Below are positions 18,337 through 28,062 of a stretch of DNA of 64,000 nucleotides, in pieces; position 1 is the stretch's first letter, and every line of letters begins with the position of its first letter. The position numbers and the translations under genes were made by a program. Below the pieces are notes generated by a model. The model saw nothing but the letters and a program-made list of their open reading frames with translations, was not told the DNA's origin and ran no database searches. The DNA is from Sphingobacteriaceae bacterium (GTDB taxonomy: Bacteria > Bacteroidota > Bacteroidia > UBA7662): the NCBI GenBank assembly GCA_013824115.1, contig PNNG01000022.1, positions 14,610 through 78,609 on the forward strand, in the 5' to 3' direction.

Positions 18337-21246
18337 CTAATCAAGCACCCACTCATCCACAAAAATATACGCGGGCTCACCTGCACTCAAATGCCAGGCA
18401 GGCAAAGGTCCCAAAGGTTCAGCCACCACACGCAAAGCTTTGAAGCTTTTTGCTTCTTTCAACTGCAGCAAAAGGGTTTGGGTTTGCACGGTATAATCGT
18501 CAGCTGGAACGCTGTTGTTCACCGTGCCCAGCAATTCGAAACGTTTGCCGTCGGTAGAACCGTAAAAGCTTACCCGGATGGGATACACAATCCAAGCACG
18601 GGTGTCTTGCAGGCAACGCAGGCCGAGTTGCGATACCCGAGTAGGCTGATCGAACTGCAGTTCGGCTTTCAAGGGCTGTCCAAAAAAACCCAACCAATCG
18701 CCCTTACGCCAGTTTTCGCTGCCGAGCAAGCCATCTATCAGGCTCGAAGCCCCGCTGGCACCATACTGGGGATGGGTAGGGGTGTTGAGCTGCACTTGGC
18801 GGTCGGTAGGCAAAACGTAATAAGCAGCGCTGATTTCGGCGCTGGCCTGTTTGCCGGCCAAATCGAAAGCCTGGGCGCGTACCAAACTGCTTTGTTTGAG
18901 TTCTATGGACTGGTTTTGCCAATTTTGCTGCAGTAGCGAAGCGGTACTGTCGGTACTCGCAATTACCAACACATTGGAATCCGTGGGGTGGAAGGCCCGT
19001 ACGGTCTGACTGCCTTTGAACACCCGGCCCCCTGCTTCAATCACCGGATTTACCACCAGGCGGTTTTCGGCGGCGTTGGGCCAAGCAGCAGCTGGCAGCG
19101 AAGTGCTGGCGTTGGTAGTGAGGGTGTACTGCCATTCACCACCTTGCAACAACTCGGCATACGACCAGCGTGTGAGATCTTTTTTCGCTTTGCCATTGGC
19201 GGTGAGCGCAACGGCGTAGATACTTCCTTTGGTGACCTTGCTGTTGATTTGCAGCGATTTACCGTTTTCAAATTTGATGCGTATTTGCTGCAAATGCGGC
19301 GCAAAACTCACAAAATGCGGATCTCCGGGCGCCACCTGGTACAAACCCATGCTGCTGAGCACGTACCAAGCACTCATTTGCCCGCAATCTTCGTTGCCAA
19401 TGAGGCCATCGGGGGCGTTGGTGTAAAAATGGCGGAGAATGCTGTCGACCAACACCTGGGTTTTGGCAGGCTTGTTCAAGGCCAGGTACAAAAAGGCCAT
19501 GTGGTGACTGGGCTCGTTGCCATGAGCATACTGACCAATCAAGCCGGTGATATCGGCCTGCTGCCTGCCGGTGGTGGCCGTGGGTGCAGCAAAAAGGGCA
19601 TCGAGCTGTTTTTCGAAGGCGGCAGGACCGCCATGCATCGCCATCAAGCCAGCCACATCGTGCGGCACAAAAAAGGCATATTGCCAGGCGTTTCCTTCTG
19701 TAAAGTGGTTATTCACCTCAAACGGATCGAAGGGCGACAACCAACCGCCATTTTGTTTGGGACGGAAAAAGCCAGTGGAAGGGTCAAAGAGGTTTTTCCA
19801 GTATTGCGCACGGGTATAGAAGTCGGCGGCCAGCTCGGTATCGCCCAGTTTTTCGGCCATGCGGGCAATGCACCAGTCGTCGTAAGCGTATTCAAGCTGT
19901 TTTGATACGTTTTCGTGCTCATCGTCGGCAGTGATCTGCCGGTTTTGCTGGTAGGCCGCCAAGCCCAGGTGTTGCAGCCGGGCGCTGTGCACCATGGCAG
20001 GCAGCAGCTCGCGGGCAGGCAGGCTGTCGATGTTCTTCAGCACGGCATCGGCAATCACACTCACGCTGTGGTAGCCAATCATGCAGTCGGTTTCGTTGCC
20101 GGCCAACTCCCAAACGGGTAACCGACCGCCTTGCTCGTACATCTTCAAAAAGGTGCGCAGGAAGTCGCGGGTGCGATTTTGGTCAATCAGCGTAAGCAGC
20201 GGGTGGTTGGCCCTAAAGGTATCCCACAACGAAAAAATGCTGTAGTGCTGGTAGCCCACTGCCGTGTGAATGCGGTTGTTCATGCCGCGGTAGCGACCAT
20301 CTACATCGCTCACCACATTGGGTTGCAGCTGCACATGGTAGAGGGCGGTGTAGAAATTCACCAGCTTGGTGGTATCGGGGTCGCTGACTTCAATCTTGGC
20401 CAGGGCCTGCTGCCACTGGGCTTTGGCTTCGCGCCGCACCCGGTCGAAATCCCAGTGTGGCACCTCTGCCTTCAGGTTTTTTTCGGCCCCGGCGGCATCG
20501 GTGAACGAAAGGCCTGTTTTAATGAGCAATGGTTTGCCTTTGGGCAGGCTGAAAGCCAGACTGATTTGTTTTCCGTCGGGACTCATGCGATGGATGAAGG
20601 GCGACGAGAACTGCATAAACGCATACACATGCTGCTCGGTAGCCCAGGCCTTGCTCACGCGGCGAATGCGCAAAGTCGTGTGGTTTACTACTTCAATGGC
20701 ATGATCGAGCAGCTCGTCGCGGTGGGTTTGGTCAATGACCACAAAAGCGCGCTGATCGGGGAAATGGTAGCGCTGCATGCCCACGCGGGTGCTGCTGGTT
20801 AGCTCCACACGAATGCCATTTTGCAGCTTCACTTGGTAATAGCCGGGGCTGGCCTTTTCGTCGGCATGTTTAAAGGCGGTACGGTAGGCAATGGGCTTAA
20901 ACATACCGCTTGCCAAAACGGGCATGGTATGGATGTCGCCATAATCGCTCACCCCCGTGCCGCTCAAATGGGTGTGGCTGAAACCGTATATGAGGCTGTC
21001 GCTGTAATGGTAGCCGCTGCAACCATCCCAACTGCCATCAATGCGCGTATCGGGCGACAACTGCACCAAACCAAAAGGCACCGTAGCCCCCGGGTAAGTG
21101 TGGCCATGACCGCCAGTGCCTATGAAGGGATTAACGTAGCGGGTGAAGTCGGGGGTTTGGGCAAAAGCAGGTGCAAAGGTTGAAGCAGCCACCAACAGTA
21201 AAACAAGCTGCCGCCAAGGCGCCGACACAAAGCGAATGTGATTCAT
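18337..21246 (-). CDS. GH92 alpha-mannosidase with C-terminal discoidin (F5/8 type C)-like domain
   Basis: NPFIGTGGHGHTYPGATVPFGLVQLSPDT is the classic GH92 N-terminus. Start moved to the ATG at 21246 (MNHIRFVSAPWRQLVLLLVAASTFAPAFAQ). The track start at 21354 adds a non-signal extension. Confidence 0.85.
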   Translation of the reverse strand: MNHIRFVSAPWRQLVLLLVAASTFAPAFAQTPDFTRYVNPFIGTGGHGHTYPGATVPFGLVQLSPDTRIDGSWDGCSGYHYSDSLIYGFSHTHLSGTGVSDYGDIHTMPVLASGMFKPIAYRTAFKHADEKASPGYYQVKLQNGIRVELTSSTRVGMQRYHFPDQRAFVVIDQTHRDELLDHAIEVVNHTTLRIRRVSKAWATEQHVYAFMQFSSPFIHRMSPDGKQISLAFSLPKGKPLLIKTGLSFTDAAGAEKNLKAEVPHWDFDRVRREAKAQWQQALAKIEVSDPDTTKLVNFYTALYHVQLQPNVVSDVDGRYRGMNNRIHTAVGYQHYSIFSLWDTFRANHPLLTLIDQNRTRDFLRTFLKMYEQGGRLPVWELAGNETDCMIGYHSVSVIADAVLKNIDSLPARELLPAMVHSARLQHLGLAAYQQNRQITADDEHENVSKQLEYAYDDWCIARMAEKLGDTELAADFYTRAQYWKNLFDPSTGFFRPKQNGGWLSPFDPFEVNNHFTEGNAWQYAFFVPHDVAGLMAMHGGPAAFEKQLDALFAAPTATTGRQQADITGLIGQYAHGNEPSHHMAFLYLALNKPAKTQVLVDSILRHFYTNAPDGLIGNEDCGQMSAWYVLSSMGLYQVAPGDPHFVSFAPHLQQIRIKFENGKSLQINSKVTKGSIYAVALTANGKAKKDLTRWSYAELLQGGEWQYTLTTNASTSLPAAAWPNAAENRLVVNPVIEAGGRVFKGSQTVRAFHPTDSNVLVIASTDSTASLLQQNWQNQSIELKQSSLVRAQAFDLAGKQASAEISAAYYVLPTDRQVQLNTPTHPQYGASGASSLIDGLLGSENWRKGDWLGFFGQPLKAELQFDQPTRVSQLGLRCLQDTRAWIVYPIRVSFYGSTDGKRFELLGTVNNSVPADDYTVQTQTLLLQLKEAKSFKALRVVAEPLGPLPAWHLSAGEPAYIFVDEWVLD

Positions 21247-21376
21247 AACAGGGTAGGGCAAAGGAGGTGGTAAAATACGTGATTTGCTGAGTTTTTTGCT
21301 CTGGCCCAAACAGGTCAATAAGGTGTAAAGTGTTTTTTCTTTTGTATGATGCATTTAATGCTTAGCATTGTCGCTT

Positions 21377-22033
21377 ATGTTTTTGAATAGATTTTCTCTT
21401 CTGGTTTTTTGCATGCTGTGCCCCCTGTTTTTAAATGCGCAAAAGGCCAAGGTAAGCGTGGTTTTTGCAACAGGAGTGTACCGGACCGTTCCTATTGTGT
21501 ATGCCGATGCCTTCAGCACCAACGAGGTACTGTCGTTGGCCAGGCCAGCAGCTGGTTTTGGGGTAGGTGCACAGTTACCGGTTTCAAAACTGAAGCGAAA
21601 TTGGCAATTGGGTGTGTCGGGACAAGCCACTTTTGGGTATATGCTGGGGCATGAGCAATTTCAGCATTTCCCCATCAGCAGCTTTAAATTTACCCGGCAT
21701 GTGGTGCAAGCGCCCGTGATACTCACTTTCAACAAACCGCTGTTCAAGAAAAAAGGAATGGCCTCCAAACATACTTTGGTGTTGGGTGCAGGTTTTCATG
21801 CCATTTATCACATTCGTCCCCTTGGTTTTGATCGGAGGCGCAAATCGCTACAAGAAGGAAATAACTTATTGGTCATGCCCGCTGCGCAGTTGGGCTACCG
21901 CTTGCGTTTGAACAGCGGTAGGTTGATTGAATTGAGCCTTTTCCAATCACTCGGCTCCGAAACCTTTGCCGACCGCCGCATCAACCGTTCGGGCAGCTCA
22001 CTCGCGTTTTCGGTGTATTTGAATGATAAGTAG
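21377..22033 (+). CDS. Hypothetical outer-membrane beta-barrel-like protein
   Basis: ATG at 21377 gives MFLNRFSLLVFCMLCPLFLNAQ (signal peptide). The track start at 21368 is TTG. Alternating strand pattern. Confidence 0.5.
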   Translation: MFLNRFSLLVFCMLCPLFLNAQKAKVSVVFATGVYRTVPIVYADAFSTNEVLSLARPAAGFGVGAQLPVSKLKRNWQLGVSGQATFGYMLGHEQFQHFPISSFKFTRHVVQAPVILTFNKPLFKKKGMASKHTLVLGAGFHAIYHIRPLGFDRRRKSLQEGNNLLVMPAAQLGYRLRLNSGRLIELSLFQSLGSETFADRRINRSGSSLAFSVYLNDK

Positions 22034-22287
22034 AGGGTTAAGTCAGGGGCAACCTAACAATGACCACTGGCTTTTGCCACGGTTCGATTCTTTTTTCAAG
22101 GGTTGCGTCTAAACTCTGTACTTTGGGTGCTGACGATAGCTCATGTGCAGTGGCCATCAATGCGCCAAATTCCCGCTCTGATAAAAGTACCACGGCTGGT
22201 TGCAATGCCCCGGCACCTTTGTGCCAACTACCCCGGTGGCGCCGTGAATGCTTATTGGCGGCATTCGGCTTGATTGGAGGGTAATCT

Positions 22288-22734
22288 TTACTGATTTGCC
22301 TCTACTTTGAATTGTTTCGGGTCTACTATAGGCAGCACCGCGCCATGTAAAAAAGTGCCTTTGAAGGCTGAAAACATGACCCCACGGGTAGTGGAAATAG
22401 ATATGCTGTTTAGGGTCACTGCCAATTCTTGTGGCAAGGTGTAAACGCCATCGGCACCTTTCAAAAGCAATTGTTCAAAATTGGCTATTTCAAAAATGCA
22501 ACTCACCGACAACGAACCCAATGGAATGGTTTGGTCTTCGTTGTGAATTTCTACATGTACTACGTCGTAAACTCTTTTTTGTACAGGTTCAATCCTTATT
22601 TCAATGTGGATGTTGAAATTGAAGCTGCTTACATTTTTCGAGGCAGGAGGAGGAAGATGTAACGCACTTTGAAGCAGTTCAATAGCCCTGAGTTGCATCT
22701 CTACATTCAGTTGTTTTGCTTGAATTTTAGCCAT
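22288..22734 (-). CDS. SecB-like chaperone candidate (third gene of a TAC-like module)
   Basis: 148 aa. By-eye alignment to recalled E. coli SecB: [29 protein letters not shown] vs [42 protein letters not shown] vs [45 protein letters not shown] vs [29 protein letters not shown]. Starts 1 nt after the antitoxin stop. Confidence 0.45.
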   Translation of the reverse strand: [148 protein letters not shown]

Positions 22735-22735
22735 A

Positions 22736-23191
22736 TTATGCTCGATAGTATGTTGGGTAGTAATTGATCCGTGAGTTAATTACAAGTGCATATCCGTTTG
22801 AAAAAGAACCACTATCTCCATAGGGAGTGTTCAATATAATCATGGGAGGTTCAGCAACAGCACTTATTGACAATGCCTGTGTGGCCGCGACTTGCTTCTG
22901 CCGACCAAACAAATCTGCCAATTCAACGCCTAAAGCAAATGCAATTTCAGTCAGCACATCCATGGTTAAATTTTGGGTGCCGCTGCACCATTTGGTCACT
23001 TCCGAAGGCTGTTTGCCCACAGCTTCAGCCAACTGTTTTTTCTTCCAGCCTTTCGCTTCCATCAAATCTTCGATGCGCGCCGCCAGTTCCATTTTGGCTT
23101 GGGTTTGTGCCATTTCCAAAGGAGTGATTTCAGCCATGAGCTCATCGAGGAGCGCGCTGTTGTGTTTTTTGGCTTGGGGTTGATTACTCAT
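22736..23191 (-). CDS. XRE-family HTH antitoxin candidate with a C-terminal extension of about 55 aa
   Basis: 151 aa. HTH region KKKQLAEAVGKQPSEVTKWCSGTQNLTMDVLTEIAFALGVELADLF. Tail ends in the aromatic, aggregation-prone YALVINSRINYYPTYYRA. 8-nt overlap with the upstream gene. Confidence 0.65.
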   Translation of the reverse strand: MSNQPQAKKHNSALLDELMAEITPLEMAQTQAKMELAARIEDLMEAKGWKKKQLAEAVGKQPSEVTKWCSGTQNLTMDVLTEIAFALGVELADLFGRQKQVAATQALSISAVAEPPMIILNTPYGDSGSFSNGYALVINSRINYYPTYYRA

Positions 23192-23693
23192 CTTCGTGTT
23201 TTTTTAGGTTTCCTTCTAAGCTTGTTCCGTCTTTTGACCACTTCAATTCACCTGACTTCAATTGTTCGAAAATTTCGATCGCGTAACTTTTAATTCTCTC
23301 TACCTCTTCGGCCAATTTTTCGTTGTCTTGCCATTTGATTACGGTTTTCGGTTTATGTCCACCGCCTCCAAGGATAATGGCAACATTGGAAAACCGAATA
23401 CAGTACAATCTTAAGTTCTTGGCTTCGTCGTCGTACAACGCACAAATACAGTTTCCATATCTATTGACAAAGTCTCGGTTCCCTTCATTTTTGAAAAAAA
23501 TCTCTCTTGCTCCAGTAGTATGGCCAATAACCCTTAAGCGCGCCGCTATTTCTTTAATTTCAACAGGGAAGGTCTGCTTATGTTCAACCACGAATTGTTC
23601 GAATAACGTTGCTGGTTCACCCTCTGGAAGAATCGAGTAAACTTTTGCTGCGTTGCCGCTAAACGTCTTTAATTCAACAATTTCGTAGTTCAC
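23184..23693 (-). CDS. Toxin candidate, distant Gp49/HigB (RelE-superfamily)-like motif arrangement
   Basis: 169 aa with a GTG start. NLRLYCIRFSNVAIILGGGGHKPKTVIKWQDNEKLAEEVERIKSY resembles the yRifyxx…ivLLxgfxKKtqktP…A core of Gp49-like toxins. Lies upstream of an HTH gene, as in HigBA. Confidence 0.4.
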   Translation of the reverse strand: MNYEIVELKTFSGNAAKVYSILPEGEPATLFEQFVVEHKQTFPVEIKEIAARLRVIGHTTGAREIFFKNEGNRDFVNRYGNCICALYDDEAKNLRLYCIRFSNVAIILGGGGHKPKTVIKWQDNEKLAEEVERIKSYAIEIFEQLKSGELKWSKDGTSLEGNLKKHEDE

Positions 23694-23730
23694 TGCATTA
23701 ACTCAGCTAATGGGTCAACGAATATAAAGT

Positions 23731-23738
23731 CAAATGTA
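23731..23738 (-). promoter_or_regulatory. Candidate Bacteroidota -7 promoter box (TACATTTG on the minus strand) for the three-gene island
   Basis: Plus-strand caaatgta equals minus-strand TACATTTG and fits TAnnTTTG. It sits 38-45 nt upstream of the GTG at 23693, in an AT-rich spacer. Confidence 0.3.
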
Positions 23739-23813
23739 TTTTACTTATAGGCAAAATTGGAATGCAAAAATACGAATTATAACCAAAATACAATCCCATT
23801 TGGTCAAATGAAA

Positions 23814-23829
23814 TTTACTTAAAAGTAAA
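23814..23829. promoter_or_regulatory. Perfect palindrome TTTACTT-AA-AAGTAAA, candidate operator
   Basis: 7-bp inverted arms seen directly, about 120 nt upstream of the island's first gene. Confidence 0.25.
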
Positions 23830-23865
23830 ATAGTTTAGCTTGTAAAGCTGACCAAGCCGTTTCCA

Positions 23866-26313
23866 TCAGCGTCCCAACACCCTCATATGCCACCACTTCC
23901 CGCTCCCCAACTCCCCCTTCACCACCACCTTCCTCCTCGGTCTTACATCCAAAAAATTGAAATCCAGGGGCGTTTCGGCATCCAGATACAGCTGGCTTAC
24001 CGCTCGGCGGGTGCGAACGGTTAGTTGGTCGCCTTGTTGAACGACACGCACCTTGGCGGCCGGCCAGTGCAACTCCTTGGGCGACAGGGGCGATAAAAAG
24101 CGGCCCGTAGGCGCGCCTTGCACTTGTACAAACAATACGGCCTTGCCGCTTTGCAGTTGTTTTTGCCAGCGATTAGGTAGGGGCAGGGCAGCGGTATGCC
24201 TGCCCGCCGCAAGCCGAATATTGAATCGCCTTCCGCCTTTGCGTAACCAACCGCCGGGTTTCCAAAGTTCGACCAGCAGGGTGGCCGTACTGTCGGTGGG
24301 CAAGTCGCCCAAAACGAGTACTTCAAGTCCGTATGAACTGCTGTGCAACACCGGTAAAATGGGCGCGTACAAATGCTGCAGGGCGTAATAACCGGCTTTG
24401 GGCCGACCGTAATAATCTACCACACTCCACGAAATGCCCGGCCAGGCATCGTTGAACTGCCAGGGCAGGGTTCCCATGCATTTTTCTTGCTGGCGGTGGG
24501 CTTCAATGGCTATTTGCAGGGCGCGGACTTGCAACAACTGGGTGGCATAGGCGTAAGCAGCCAGGCTATCGAACTTCCCGAAATCGCGCTCCAGGTAGGT
24601 GTTCAGGGTCTCAAAGCCGGTGGGGTGCTTTTGCTTGGTACGCAAGGCCTGACTTTGCAGGCCGGGACGATCTTCTCCCGTCATCTGCTGCAAACTGCGC
24701 CAAACGGGCAAGGCCTGCATGCCGTATTCCGATACAAAACGGCCGGTTTTTCGGCGGTATGTTTCGAGCGAATCACGTCCCCACCATACGCCCCAATAAT
24801 GCACATCGCCTTCCTGGTATGCCCGTTCGCGTCCCCAACCGTTGAGGGGCGACGAGTGGGAATAGGAGCGGTCGGGGTCGTATTGCCGCACCAAAGCCAG
24901 CAGCTCACGCTGAAACAGCTGTTGGTAGGCTTGTAATACAGCCAGACTGTCAGCAGGCGAGTGTCCGAGCTGTTTTTGCCAGCCCCAATTGAACCAGCCT
25001 TCGTAGTTTTCGTTATTGCCGCACCACAGGGCCAGGCTGGTGTAAGGGCGCAAACGCAATAACTGTTCGGTGGCTTCGCGCCGCACCGAGGCCACAAAAG
25101 CCGAATCGCCGGGGTACATGGCGCAGGCAAAGGCAAAATCTTGCCATACGAGCAAACCCAGCTGGTCGGCGCTTTCCATCAAAGCATCGCTGGCATAATC
25201 GCCTCCGCCCCAAACGCGGATGAGGTTCATGTGCGCCTTTTGTGCCAGCTGCAGCAGGTTGGAGTCGGGGAGGGCTAGGCTATCGTTAACCAAACGTGAA
25301 CGGGGAATGTAGTTGATGCCTTTGATAAAGAGGGGACGGTTATTCACCAGAATATAAAACGAGCGCCCAAAGTCGTCGGCTTCTTGCACCAGCTCTACCG
25401 TGCGGATACCCACCTTGTTTTCATATCGCTGCACCACCACATCGCCTTGTAGCAAATAGGCTTCCAAGCGGTGCAAAAAGGCTTCGCCCGAACCATTGGG
25501 CCACCAAAGTTTGGGGTGGGGGATGTATAAATCGACTTCGAGCAAGCTGTCGGTCGGTTCCAGATCGATGGCCTTGGTCACATAGCGTTGGCCATCGCCC
25601 AGCAACAACACCAATTGTCCGCCCGGCTGCGCCCCGTGCACCACCGTACTCACCCTCAACACGGCCACTGTATCCTCTAGCCGCATGGTACGGAAATGCC
25701 AGTGCTTGAGTTCGGTCTGCTGCTTCGTTTCCACCAGGCGCACTTCGCCGGTGATGCCACCAGCCAGCAACTTCGGGCCCCAGTCCCAACCAAAATGCCA
25801 GGCGGGCTTGCGCACAAAAACACGGTGGCTTTCGGGCAAGGCTTGTGGATATTGGCTGCGCAGCGAATCGTTGGTGGCTTGGATGGGCCGAATTTCAACT
25901 TGCAGCAAATTGCTTCCTGCACGGGTTGCTTTGCTGAGCAAAAATTGGTGGCTGTGGAAGGCGTTGCCCGTTCGGCCGAGCAATTGTCCGTTGAGGTAGA
26001 TGCGAGCGTCGGTGTCGATGCGATCGAAATGCAGGGCCAGCCCGCTATCGGCTAACTGATCGGCCGTCAGTTCAAAGCGGGAGTGGTACCACCACGACAG
26101 GGTGTCGGCCCATTGCCAGCGGGCTTCCAAGGCGGGATGGGTGTAGGGCGGTAGTTTGCCTGCCAGGGTGAGGCTTTCGTAGATGGTGCCGGGTACTTGG
26201 CCGTTGAAGGTATCGGGTAGGGAAGGACTGCTGAGCTGCCAATCCTTGATAATGGTTTGGGCGTCGGTTGTTTGGAACAAACCGAAGAGGAGGCAGCAGA
26301 GCAGGAGCTTCAT
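23866..26313 (-). CDS. GH2 beta-mannosidase
   Basis: 815 aa with a signal peptide (MKLLLCCLLFGLFQTTDAQ). GH2 beta-mannosidase-like regions (…NMIRVWGGGDYASD…, …WCGNNENYEGW…, …VSEYGMQALP…). Confidence 0.8.
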   Translation of the reverse strand: MKLLLCCLLFGLFQTTDAQTIIKDWQLSSPSLPDTFNGQVPGTIYESLTLAGKLPPYTHPALEARWQWADTLSWWYHSRFELTADQLADSGLALHFDRIDTDARIYLNGQLLGRTGNAFHSHQFLLSKATRAGSNLLQVEIRPIQATNDSLRSQYPQALPESHRVFVRKPAWHFGWDWGPKLLAGGITGEVRLVETKQQTELKHWHFRTMRLEDTVAVLRVSTVVHGAQPGGQLVLLLGDGQRYVTKAIDLEPTDSLLEVDLYIPHPKLWWPNGSGEAFLHRLEAYLLQGDVVVQRYENKVGIRTVELVQEADDFGRSFYILVNNRPLFIKGINYIPRSRLVNDSLALPDSNLLQLAQKAHMNLIRVWGGGDYASDALMESADQLGLLVWQDFAFACAMYPGDSAFVASVRREATEQLLRLRPYTSLALWCGNNENYEGWFNWGWQKQLGHSPADSLAVLQAYQQLFQRELLALVRQYDPDRSYSHSSPLNGWGRERAYQEGDVHYWGVWWGRDSLETYRRKTGRFVSEYGMQALPVWRSLQQMTGEDRPGLQSQALRTKQKHPTGFETLNTYLERDFGKFDSLAAYAYATQLLQVRALQIAIEAHRQQEKCMGTLPWQFNDAWPGISWSVVDYYGRPKAGYYALQHLYAPILPVLHSSSYGLEVLVLGDLPTDSTATLLVELWKPGGWLRKGGRRFNIRLAAGRHTAALPLPNRWQKQLQSGKAVLFVQVQGAPTGRFLSPLSPKELHWPAAKVRVVQQGDQLTVRTRRAVSQLYLDAETPLDFNFLDVRPRRKVVVKGELGSGKWWHMRVLGR

Positions 26314-26442: not shown

Positions 26443-27485
26443 CAGGCCGCGCGTTTCGACTACGCTCAACGACCGGCAGAGGCTTTTGCCTAGGCCGCTA
26501 AAGCGGCTTGGCCGGAGAACGCGGAGGGTTGCTGCAGGAATTAAACCCCACGGATGGCAGGGGTTTGCAAGGCGGAGGGAGGGTGTATTTGATGCTGCTG
26601 ACCGAGCAGTTTGGAGTTTTATGGATGATCATTTCTTTAACGGCTCATAAAAGCCCCAGGGTGGCGGCATGTGTGTAGCACCAGGGTGCCCCCCAAATTT
26701 CAAAGAGCCCTGGAGGGGCGCCATGTGGGACCCTAACCAGGATGCATGTTGGGTTGTCCAAGATTTTTTAAATCCACCGACATCATTTGATCGCACATCG
26801 CACCCCTCCGGGGTGCAAAAAGGTAGGGTGTGTTTGCGGTTCTACACACATGTCGCCCCTCTGGGGCTCAGCGGCTAGGTTTTGTTTGAATGACACACAT
26901 GCCGCCCCTCCGGGGCTCAGCGGCTAGGTTTTGTTTGGTCACTAGCAGGCCGCGCGTTTCGACTACGCTCAACGACCGGCGGAGGTTTTTGGCCCACGCC
27001 GCAAAAGCGGCTTGGCCAGAGAACGCGGAGGGTTGTGGCGGGAATTTAACCCCACGGATGGCTGGGGTTTGCAACGCGGTGGGAGGATGTAATTGATTTT
27101 GCTTATCGAGCAGCGTGGTGTTTTTGGTCATTTCTTTAACGGCACGCAAATAGCCCCAGGGGGGCGGCATGTGCGTAGCATCAAGGTGCCCCCAAATTTC
27201 AAAGCGCCCTGGAGGGGCGCCATGTGGGACCCTAACCAGGATGCATGTTGGGTTGGTCAAGATTTTTTAAATCCACCGACATCATTTGATCGCACATCGC
27301 ACCCCGCTGGGGTGCAAAAAGGTAGGGTGTGTTTGCGGTGCTACGCAGATTCCACCCCTCCGGGGTTCAGCGGCTAAGTTTTGTTTAGATTACGCACATG
27401 TCGCCCTTCCAGGGCTCAGCGGCTAGGTTTTGTTTGGTCACTAGCAGGCCGCGCGTTTCGACTACGCTCAAGGACCGGCGGAGGC
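26443..27485. repeat. Tandem ~500-bp repeat: 2 full units (26443-26945, 26946-27444) plus the first ~40 bp of a third
   Basis: Unit starts caggccgcgcgtttcgactacgctcaa at 26443, 26946 and 27445 (periods 503 and 499). Copies are highly similar by eye, with substitutions and small indels. Each unit ends in two 49-bp subrepeats (cacacatgYcgcccctccggggctcagcggctaggttttgtttgaatga). Confidence 0.9.
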
Positions 27486-27592
27486 TATTCTGTCAGCATC
27501 CAAAGAAGTCCGCGGAGCTAAAAGCTTTGGTTTTGCTTGCCCCTGGCTGTGGAGGGATAAAAAAACATTTCGTACCTTTCGAAAAAAGCGCC

Positions 27593-27775
27593 ATGCTTAA
27601 TAAAGATTCCGTCATCAAAACTGTTCAGACTTTTCCGGATAAATTTTCGGTGGATGAATTGGTCGATAAAATGATACTGCTCGACAAGATTGAGAAGGGG
27701 ATTCAACAAGCCGAAAACAACGAGGTCGTTAGCGAAGAAGAGTTTGATAAAAAACTCGACGAATGGCTAAAATAG
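27593..27775 (+). CDS. Type II antitoxin candidate (60 aa)
   Basis: ATG at 27593: MLNKDSVIKTVQTFPDKFSVDELVDKMILLDKIEKGIQQAENNEVVSEEEFDKKLDEWLK. Overlaps the toxin gene by 13 nt. The longer track ORF (27398) starts inside repeat sequence. Confidence 0.6.
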   Translation: MLNKDSVIKTVQTFPDKFSVDELVDKMILLDKIEKGIQQAENNEVVSEEEFDKKLDEWLK

Positions 27776-28062
27776 TTTGGACAGACCAAGCAACCGTCGA
27801 AATTCGCGACATACTGGATTACATATCCAAAGATTCTCGTCGCTACGCGATAAGTCAAATCAGAAGAATTCAGGGGGCGACCAAAATCTTAAAGAGCAAA
27901 CCACTTGCAGGGCGAACGGTTCCTGAATTAGGTGACCAAACCATCAGAGAACTCATAGAGGGTAATTACAGAATTGTTTATCGGGTTAAAGATGTGGAGC
28001 TGATTGAGATTTTGACTGTTCATCATACAGCCCGTGATTTTCAATCACGTTTGTTCGGATAA
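27763..28062 (+). CDS. ParE/RelE-family type II toxin
   Basis: 99 aa. WTDQATVEIRDILDYISKDS…IRELIEGNYRIVYRVKDVELIEILTVHHTARDF matches the ParE/RelE pattern. Confidence 0.75.
   Translation: MAKIVWTDQATVEIRDILDYISKDSRRYAISQIRRIQGATKILKSKPLAGRTVPELGDQTIRELIEGNYRIVYRVKDVELIEILTVHHTARDFQSRLFG

Follow-up and report, generated by a model that had tools for sequence, protein, structure and literature searches.

Here, we describe a three-gene cassette on the minus strand of a 64,000-nt stretch of contig PNNG01000022.1 from a Sphingobacteriaceae bacterium (hereafter, the window), which we consider likely to be a self-contained, horizontally mobile toxin–antitoxin–chaperone (TAC) module of the HigBA-plus-SecB-like type. 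Gene 1 encodes a putative toxin, gene 2 an XRE-family helix–turn–helix (HTH) protein that is the antitoxin candidate, and gene 3 a chaperone-like protein with a predicted SecB fold. The cassette is probably a defensive, divergent member of the TAC group with a HigBA-like, toxin-first layout. An earlier interpretation made from the letters of the DNA (the sequence-only reading) had proposed a divergent TAC-like module, a proposal now supported by predicted-fold matches, the conserved toxin–antitoxin–chaperone gene order, decay that affects gene 1 alone, natural gene fusions, a conserved operator, and defense neighbors in some relatives.

A TAC antitoxin depends on its chaperone for folding, for survival, and for neutralization of the toxin, and removal of the antitoxin's C-terminal chaperone-addiction (ChAD) segment abolishes this dependence. 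The chaperone is a SecB-type tetramer that binds the ChAD segment in an extended conformation. The open reading frame (ORF) coordinates in the window confirm the coupling previously described for the three genes: genes 1 and 2 share an 8-nt overlap, and genes 2 and 3 are separated by 1 nt. A 172-nt leader precedes gene 1 and begins directly after the stop codon of a glycoside hydrolase (GH) family 2 gene. Genes 1 and 3 are hypothetical proteins in the existing annotation of the contig.

We compared AF2 models of genes 1 and 3, both computed as monomers, with the PDB by using Foldseek. The gene 3 model (pLDDT 84.7) shows four strands followed by a long helix, and its 17 PDB matches with E ≤ 0.001 comprise only SecB and the TAC chaperone Rv1957, the outcome that the sequence-only reading had expected of a structure prediction. 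The top match, 5mtw (E = 7.5e-5), is the Mycobacterium tuberculosis TAC chaperone Rv1957 crystallized with a ChAD peptide of the antitoxin HigA1; the SecB structures 1ozb, 1fx3, and 1qyn come next, and TM scores reach 0.64. These model-based comparisons provide good support for a SecB fold in gene 3. The gene 3 family is large and almost entirely confined to Bacteroidota, and a few database sources label its members “SecB”. SecB itself is rare in Bacteroidetes, which contributed 9 of the 3813 SecBs in one survey (PMC4361572).

The gene 1 model (pLDDT 92.1) has the order β1-α1-α2-(short helix)-β2-β3-β4, followed by a long α3 helix (residues 125–147) and a small hairpin. Its best PDB matches are six chains of the Gp49-type HigB toxin of Streptococcus pneumoniae (6af4/6af3; E = 0.02–0.09, probability up to 0.98, TM 0.5–0.6 on the target length), and further matches include Cami1, M. 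tuberculosis HigB1 (7nbu_Y), Vibrio cholerae HigB2, PfiT, ParE, and BrnT. The model thus lends weak support to a fold of the RelE/ParE superfamily, Gp49/HigB-like and with a long C-terminal helix. The RelE/Gp49 fold forecast by the sequence-only reading was recovered in this form, with HigB-type toxins as the best matches at a weak E value of 0.02; the Gp49/HigB likeness that it assigned to gene 1 is a resemblance of predicted fold and topology and fails at the level of sequence. Gene 1 has no Pfam match, even at E ≤ 1, and no NCBIfam match, and it does not belong to PF05973 (Gp49) by sequence. Likewise, PHROGs gave no match for genes 1 and 3 or for three relatives, and profile searches of the PDB with alignments of gene 1 (A2 and A3) and gene 3 (A1) returned no relevant match, the only one being BH1328 at E = 0.51. 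A Foldseek comparison of gene 1 with viral models was uninformative, its best matches being unnamed small proteins.

Gp49-like toxins, HigB from the M. tuberculosis TAC among them, are built from four strands and a long C-terminal helix, with catalytic Arg, Lys, and Gln residues around the β4-α3 loop (PMC9098466). In gene 1, R95, K114, K116, and Q122 are conserved, and the loop after β4 reads GGGG-H-K114-P-K116...Q122 before entering the long helix. We infer from this arrangement that R95, K114, K116, and Q122 are candidate catalytic residues, as unaligned equivalents of R68, R77, K95, Q98, and K99 of HigB(TAC). Gene 1 is approximately 45–50 aa longer than typical HigB toxins, judged by Foldseek target lengths. 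An exhaustive profile search places it in a large family of 989 representative clusters that is almost entirely restricted to Bacteroidota. One source names the relatives P0166, P0186, and P0196 “CRISPR/Cas system CSM-associated protein Csm5”; this name found no support in fold or family searches and looks like an automatic misannotation.

Gene 2 is, as had been described, an XRE HTH protein with a C-terminal extension. Pfam places HTH_26 (1.9e-11) and HTH_3 (1.7e-10) at residues 39–99, and the 52 further residues terminate in YALVINSRINYYPTYYRA. Across 57 orthologues, the N-terminal 35 residues and the HTH domain are conserved. The tail varies in length from 28 to 74 aa, is less charged, and is the least conserved region of the protein, with aromatic residues making up 11% of the tail versus 6.3% of the body. 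Identity to the nearest relative is 38% in the tail and 90% in the body. Gene 2 therefore combines, as expected of a TAC antitoxin, a body of a canonical antitoxin family with a C-terminal extension that is variable in both length and composition. A variable, aromatic-enriched tail also agrees with published descriptions of ChAD segments (PMC5105189; bioRxiv 10.1101/2024.02.24.581848).

The order gene 1-gene 2-gene 3 is nearly universal among 66 genome loci of relatives, the tight linkage expected of a TAC. Most of the Bacteroidota loci (approximately 60) retain both the 8-nt and the 1-nt junction, as do distant marine and plasmid relatives, and most also have the GTG start of gene 1. The three-gene layout extends to relatives only ~30% identical, among them a Hymenobacter megaplasmid and marine loci. 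The genes on either side vary from locus to locus, the commonest neighbor family being found in just six of the 66 loci, and the closest relative (78–81% protein identity) has only the coding region in common with the window. Because the flanks are unrelated and even the closest relative shares nothing beyond the coding region, the cassette moves as a unit and is horizontally mobile.

Decay of the cassette follows a consistent direction. All three genes are intact in 45 of 58 evaluable loci, and in 10 loci gene 1 alone is truncated, frameshifted, or missing; the reverse case, damage to gene 2 or 3 next to an intact gene 1, does not occur among the 58 (one-sided binomial p = 3.8e-5 on the share of gene length, for loci that are not all phylogenetically independent and many of which come from metagenome-assembled genomes (MAGs)). 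Loss restricted to gene 1 is the expected footprint of a toxin whose neutralizers, gene 3 included, cannot go first. The loci in which the toxin is missing or broken and the antitoxin and chaperone are intact (L004, L005, L010, L016, L019, L023, L026, L031, L038, and L049) are counterparts of the “AC” systems that Sala et al. (PMC3581621) reported.

In Ca. Opimibacter, a single ORF spans genes 2 and 3 and is present in two diverged copies (L056:5289–6182 and L058:5530–6420) that lie within ~6-kb segments 95.7% identical to each other. In the protein database, 13 clusters (P0389–P0401; 282–301 aa) carry both the gene 2 and the gene 3 domains, with identities down to ~30%. The fusions, to which loci L077–L080 also belong, occur in several divergent lineages and come from independent sources, and in those examined, a gene 1-like ORF of 166–167 aa overlaps the start of the fusion gene. 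Such natural fusions are Rosetta-stone evidence of physical cooperation between the antitoxin and the SecB-fold protein. Together with the strict co-occurrence of genes 2 and 3, they support a coupling of the two. In the TAC literature that we searched, only engineered chimeras are described, and no natural antitoxin–chaperone fusion was found.

Two loci among the relatives call for comment. On the Bacteroides thetaiotaomicron plasmid NZ_CP103284, genes resembling genes 1 and 2 (the latter encoding 127 aa) precede one for a 159-aa protein (L074:4307–4786) that has no match to the gene 3 hidden Markov model (HMM) and an hhalign probability of 0.10, with a DUF4041 protein upstream. Two readings fit the 159-aa protein: a chaperone that has diverged very far, or another kind of third component. 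Locus L046, titled as a Brevundimonas vancanneytii MAG, matches the two Sediminibacterium loci L044 and L045 in layout, and the three have near-identical antitoxins and some flanking genes in common. An alphaproteobacterial label on a Bacteroidota-type cassette suggests that the L046 contig is mis-binned.

The leader contains two candidate operators. O1 is a perfect palindrome, and O2 is an imperfect copy of it that lies within a 29-nt direct repeat (23729–23757 and 23803–23831), with an inverted repeat also called at O2. A relaxed form of the palindrome has a single match in the window. Orthologous leaders carry a perfect palindrome at the O2-equivalent position (approximately −64). Within 200 nt upstream of gene 1, the density of the motif TYACYnnnnRGTRA is 6.2 per kb, compared to 0.008 per kb elsewhere in the loci, an enrichment of ~740-fold in orthologous leaders, of which 45 of 53 contain at least one site and 21 contain two. 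The sites cluster at approximately −140 and −70, around a TAnnTTTG box at approximately −80. By sequence, the conserved leader palindromes look like an autoregulated HigA-type operator, and gene 2, with its HTH_3-type domain and palindromic sites in its own promoter region, has the features of a putative autoregulating antitoxin of the XRE/HigA type.

The box TACATTTG and the perfect palindrome that the sequence-only reading had pointed out are both present. Because TATTTTTG occupies the same position as the TAnnTTTG box at approximately −80 in the orthologues, it is the likelier Bacteroidota-type −7 box. Scans of the window for terminators and sigma-70 promoters gave no more sites than shuffled sequence, which is expected since the scan does not cover Bacteroidota promoters. 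In most orthologues (L001–L049), as at 23691–23693 in the window, the start codon of the toxin gene is GTG (or TTG), and that of the antitoxin and chaperone genes is ATG. The GTG/TTG start may hold translation of the toxin low relative to that of the antitoxin.

All three adjacent genes of the window match HMMs of the PADLOC candidate system PDC-M64: gene 1 matches PDC-M64B (8.5e-36), gene 2 the PDC-M64C/B HTH models (1.5e-19), and gene 3 PDC-M64C (6.9e-15). The PDC systems are 145 untested candidates obtained through “guilt by embedding” in BREX, DISARM, and type I restriction–modification (RM) loci (bioRxiv 10.1101/2024.01.29.577857). PDC-M64 was defined from two-gene and three-gene cassettes with a common first family (Payne et al., bioRxiv 10.1101/2024.01.29.577857). 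The question of whether genes 1 and 2 occur both with and without gene 3, raised by the sequence-only reading, is thereby answered at second hand, through the cassettes in this list alone. A search of the text and supplements of Payne et al. that were available to us found no mention of SecB for PDC-M64, and the TAC reading of this candidate is therefore added here. A full-text literature search for “PDC-M64” returned no paper, the name being found only in a supplement.

Among the loci examined, recurrent neighbors include the type I RM subunits HsdM, HsdS, and HsdR, a TIR effector, and the PDC-S02/YhcG nuclease, as well as Fic proteins, a C5 methylase, AbiEii, and cas9-cas1-cas2. Most of the loci, the window included, are without such defense neighbors. 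In the closest relative (L076), the cassette is located ~400 nt upstream of a type II CRISPR-Cas system (L076:6844–12201) with a 1374-aa Cas9 containing HNH and RuvC domains, followed by Cas1 and Cas2. The Escherichia coli systems HigBAC, CmdTAC, and MqsRAC defend against phages (bioRxiv 10.1101/2024.02.24.581848; PMC11618068; PMC9519451), and the HigBAC chaperone acts as a sensor for a phage tail protein, which competes with the ChAD (bioRxiv 10.1101/2024.02.24.581848). By analogy, a defense role for the cassette family is likely.

The M. tuberculosis TAC (HigB1 Rv1955, HigA1 Rv1956, and Rv1957; PMC5105189, PMC6377645, and PMC9098466) is among the known systems closest to the cassette. Both have the same gene order and antitoxins of similar size (149 aa versus 151 aa for gene 2) with C-terminal extensions of ~45–52 aa; the gene 1 model shows the Gp49-like topology, long C-terminal helix included, and Rv1957 (5mtw) is the best structural match of gene 3. 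Unlike in the M. tuberculosis system, there is no detectable sequence similarity for toxin or chaperone, gene 1 is ~45 aa longer, gene 3 has 148 aa compared to 181 aa in Rv1957, and the gene 2 tail contains no copy of the W-x-R-type motifs described for HigA1. The host is a member of the Bacteroidota, and the putative promoter is of the Bacteroidota type. The HigBAC system of E. coli NT1F31, CmdTAC, and MqsRAC follow the same tripartite logic, and part of the cassette family is likewise found in mobile or defense contexts. These E. coli systems are prophage-borne with proven defense, whereas relatives of the cassette were not found on viral contigs or phage genomes, and CmdT is an ADP-ribosyltransferase, unlike gene 1. 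S. pneumoniae HigBA (6af3/6af4), the best structural match of the gene 1 model, is a similar toxin-first operon with an XRE antitoxin, but it is bipartite and lacks a chaperone, and gene 1 has no PF05973 match. Housekeeping SecB (PF02556; 1qyn, 1fx3, and 1ozb) and gene 3 share a predicted four-stranded sheet and long helix (TM 0.5–0.64). In contrast to housekeeping SecB, gene 3 is always within a toxin–antitoxin–chaperone cassette and never alone, has a patchy distribution and mobile behavior, lacks sequence similarity to SecB, and gives no evidence of a SecA-binding surface. PDC-M64, to whose HMMs all three proteins of the window match, is itself a candidate defined by gene embedding.

A mechanism consistent with these features can be outlined. 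The operon would be transcribed from a Bacteroidota-type promoter within the leader, and gene 2 dimers may repress it by binding the two palindromic operators, one on either side of the −7 box and 74 bp from each other. Gene 1, translated from a conserved weak GTG start, would be a Gp49/HigB-like toxin of the RelE fold, its most likely activity being cleavage of mRNA on the ribosome. Gene 2 would neutralize gene 1 through its conserved N-terminal and HTH body, and its tail of ~52 residues, by analogy with published ChAD segments, would render it unstable unless held by a chaperone. Gene 3, with its predicted SecB fold, would hold this tail. If expression stopped, or if something such as a phage structural protein drew the chaperone away, as happens in E. 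coli HigBAC, the antitoxin would be degraded and the toxin would halt translation, perhaps resulting in abortive infection or in addiction to the cassette.

Several results weigh against this interpretation. Gene 3 has no Pfam match at E ≤ 1, PF02556 included, and no NCBIfam match; a profile of 55 gene 3 sequences found no match in the PDB, and hhalign aligned the gene 3 profile to E. coli SecB, whose sequence was first verified against the PDB, with a probability of only 0.13. The “block for block” alignment with E. coli SecB reported by the sequence-only reading is thus not borne out, and the SecB likeness of gene 3 is real at the level of the predicted fold and not of the sequence. The fold match of gene 1 is weak (best E 0.02, with TM 0.35–0.45 on the query length), and no significant sequence link to any toxin family was found. 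In a Pfam scan of 76 diverse gene 1 relatives, one touches Gp49 (E = 0.0035), a match that we do not count as evidence because it lies among equally weak noise. Viral contigs and phage genomes yielded no relatives, and in the window the cassette sits between glycoside hydrolases, outside a defense island. The dependence among the loci and the many MAGs in the decay test also belong here. Finally, the distal aromatic stretch of the gene 2 tail is missing in L021, L022, and L041, whose toxins are intact; the chaperone-binding core may therefore lie within residues ~100–128, a strand-like block that is the better conserved part of the tail, rather than at the distal aromatic end. As sequence membership fails for both PF02556 and PF05973, we describe the cassette as one that would work like a TAC and as a structural relative of known systems.

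The same tripartite biochemistry could also serve a purely selfish addiction module that stabilizes itself or its DNA by postsegregational killing and takes no part in phage defense. The position of the cassette between GH92 and GH2 genes instead of defense genes would fit such a module, as would the occurrence of plasmid copies, the frequent toxin decay that is typical of chromosomal toxin–antitoxin (TA) remnants, the failure to find relatives on viral contigs or phage genomes, and the fact that most of the 66 loci have no recognizable defense neighbor. Where neighbors do recur, however, the commonest are type I RM subunits and other defense genes; the closest relative adjoins cas9, the family was independently picked up by its embedding in BREX, DISARM, or type I RM systems, and the TACs tested by experiment (HigBAC, CmdTAC, and MqsRAC) defend against phages. 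We therefore consider a selfish module without a defense function improbable, if still the most serious competitor of a defensive TAC.

Alternatively, the module could be tripartite as proposed and its toxin could be something other than a ribosome-dependent RNase, acting, for instance, by ParE-like gyrase poisoning or nucleic-acid binding, with the C-terminal extension (helix 125–147 plus hairpin) as a possible sensor. We assign this explanation a slim chance. ParE toxins are among the matches of a marginal fold search, gene 1 belongs by sequence to no RNase toxin family, and its extra ~45–50 aa set it apart from typical HigB; yet the best six PDB matches are all one HigB (Gp49-like) toxin, followed by M. 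tuberculosis HigB1 and Cami1, the long α3 helix and the Lys/Gln-rich β4-α3 loop typify Gp49-like RNases, and HigBA likewise places the toxin first and pairs it with an XRE antitoxin. It is very unlikely that the cassette is no TA system at all, with an XRE-regulated operon encoding two nontoxic proteins and the SecB shape of gene 3 reflecting a generic α/β resemblance. This explanation would accommodate the lack of a curated family for genes 1 and 3, the moderate Foldseek TM scores of 0.5–0.64, and the unrelated automatic names, such as Csm5, given by some sources, but it leaves the decay of gene 1 alone (p = 3.8e-5), the exclusive presence of SecB structures among the significant matches of gene 3, the gene 2-gene 3 fusions, the behavior of the cassette as a mobile unit between unrelated flanks, and the defense contexts of part of the family without an explanation. 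A HigBA-plus-SecB-like TAC module remains the reading that we prefer.

Features of the cassette, its leader, and its neighbors in the window
Feature	Coordinates	Strand	Details
Gene 3, SecB-fold chaperone-like protein	22288–22734	minus	ORF call, 148 aa
Gene 2, XRE-family HTH protein, antitoxin candidate	22736–23191	minus	ORF call, 151 aa
C-terminal tail of gene 2, candidate ChAD segment	22739–22894	minus	residues 100–151, beyond the HTH domain
HTH DNA-binding domain of gene 2	22895–23077	minus	residues 39–99, Pfam
Gene 1, putative toxin	23184–23693	minus	ORF call, 169 aa, GTG start
Leader, promoter–operator region	23694–23865	minus	172 nt, GH2 stop to gene 1 start
Second TAnnTTTG match TACATTTG	23731–23738	minus	just downstream of O2; consensus match only
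Operator O2 candidate	23739–23756		imperfect copy TTTTGCCTATAAGTAAAA; 74 nt from O1
Candidate Bacteroidota-type −7 box TATTTTTG	23765–23772	minus	consensus match and positional homology only
Operator O1 candidate	23814–23829		perfect palindrome TTTACTT-nn-AAGTAAA; 136 nt upstream of gene 1
GH92 gene	18337–21354		flanking neighbor, gene 3 side
221-aa ORF	21368–22033	plus	neighbor on the gene 3 side; no Pfam match
GH2 gene	23866–26313		flanking neighbor, leader side

The GH92 and GH2 neighbors named by the sequence-only reading were confirmed; its “barrel” label for the protein next to GH92 was not, as this 221-aa ORF has no Pfam match. The cassette had also been described as an inserted, AT-richer block. 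Its GC content is indeed 0.38–0.45 compared to 0.55–0.58 in the GH92 and GH2 genes, but values along the whole window range from 0.42 to 0.58, and several kilobases are as AT-rich as the cassette block. Composition alone is therefore no proof of insertion and marks no island, and we rejected low GC as proof that the cassette was inserted. The only flanking direct repeat found around the cassette is a 19-nt pair, 79% identical, located in the spacer after gene 3 (22160–22178) and at the 3′ end of GH2 (23887–23905); this pair could be a chance match or an insertion relic, and we treat it as chance.

A second TA pair, of a conventional type, lies ~3.5 kb away on the plus strand, beyond GH2 (27398–28062). 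In this pair, a 125-aa ORF (27398–27775) with no Pfam match overlaps by 13 nt a 99-aa ParE_toxin protein (27763–28062; PF05016, E = 9.7e-15), and the GC content of the patch is 0.415.

The existence of the TAC kind is already known, as is the listing of this family as the candidate PDC-M64; the TAC reading of PDC-M64, its breadth across Bacteroidota, and the natural fused forms are added here. A more ambitious joint proposal, to which we give somewhat less than even credence, is that the family forms a large, Bacteroidota-wide anti-phage branch of TAC systems with a SecB-fold sensor and a new, extended branch of RelE-superfamily toxins, in which the chaperone may in some forms act in cis. If this proposal is true, an untested candidate system would gain a mechanism, and the fused and unfused forms would constitute a natural experiment on chaperone addiction. 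At this locus, the practical value lies in better annotation of three genes labeled “hypothetical” or “HTH”. More broadly, most work on TAC systems concerns Actinobacteria and Proteobacteria, and the family would extend them to a phylum in which SecB is rare. It would also highlight that an unchanged architecture can contain toxins and chaperones too divergent for sequence profiles to recognize, and relatives with natural fusions would make it possible to examine whether the antitoxin can be addicted to a chaperone in cis and how triggering could then still take place.

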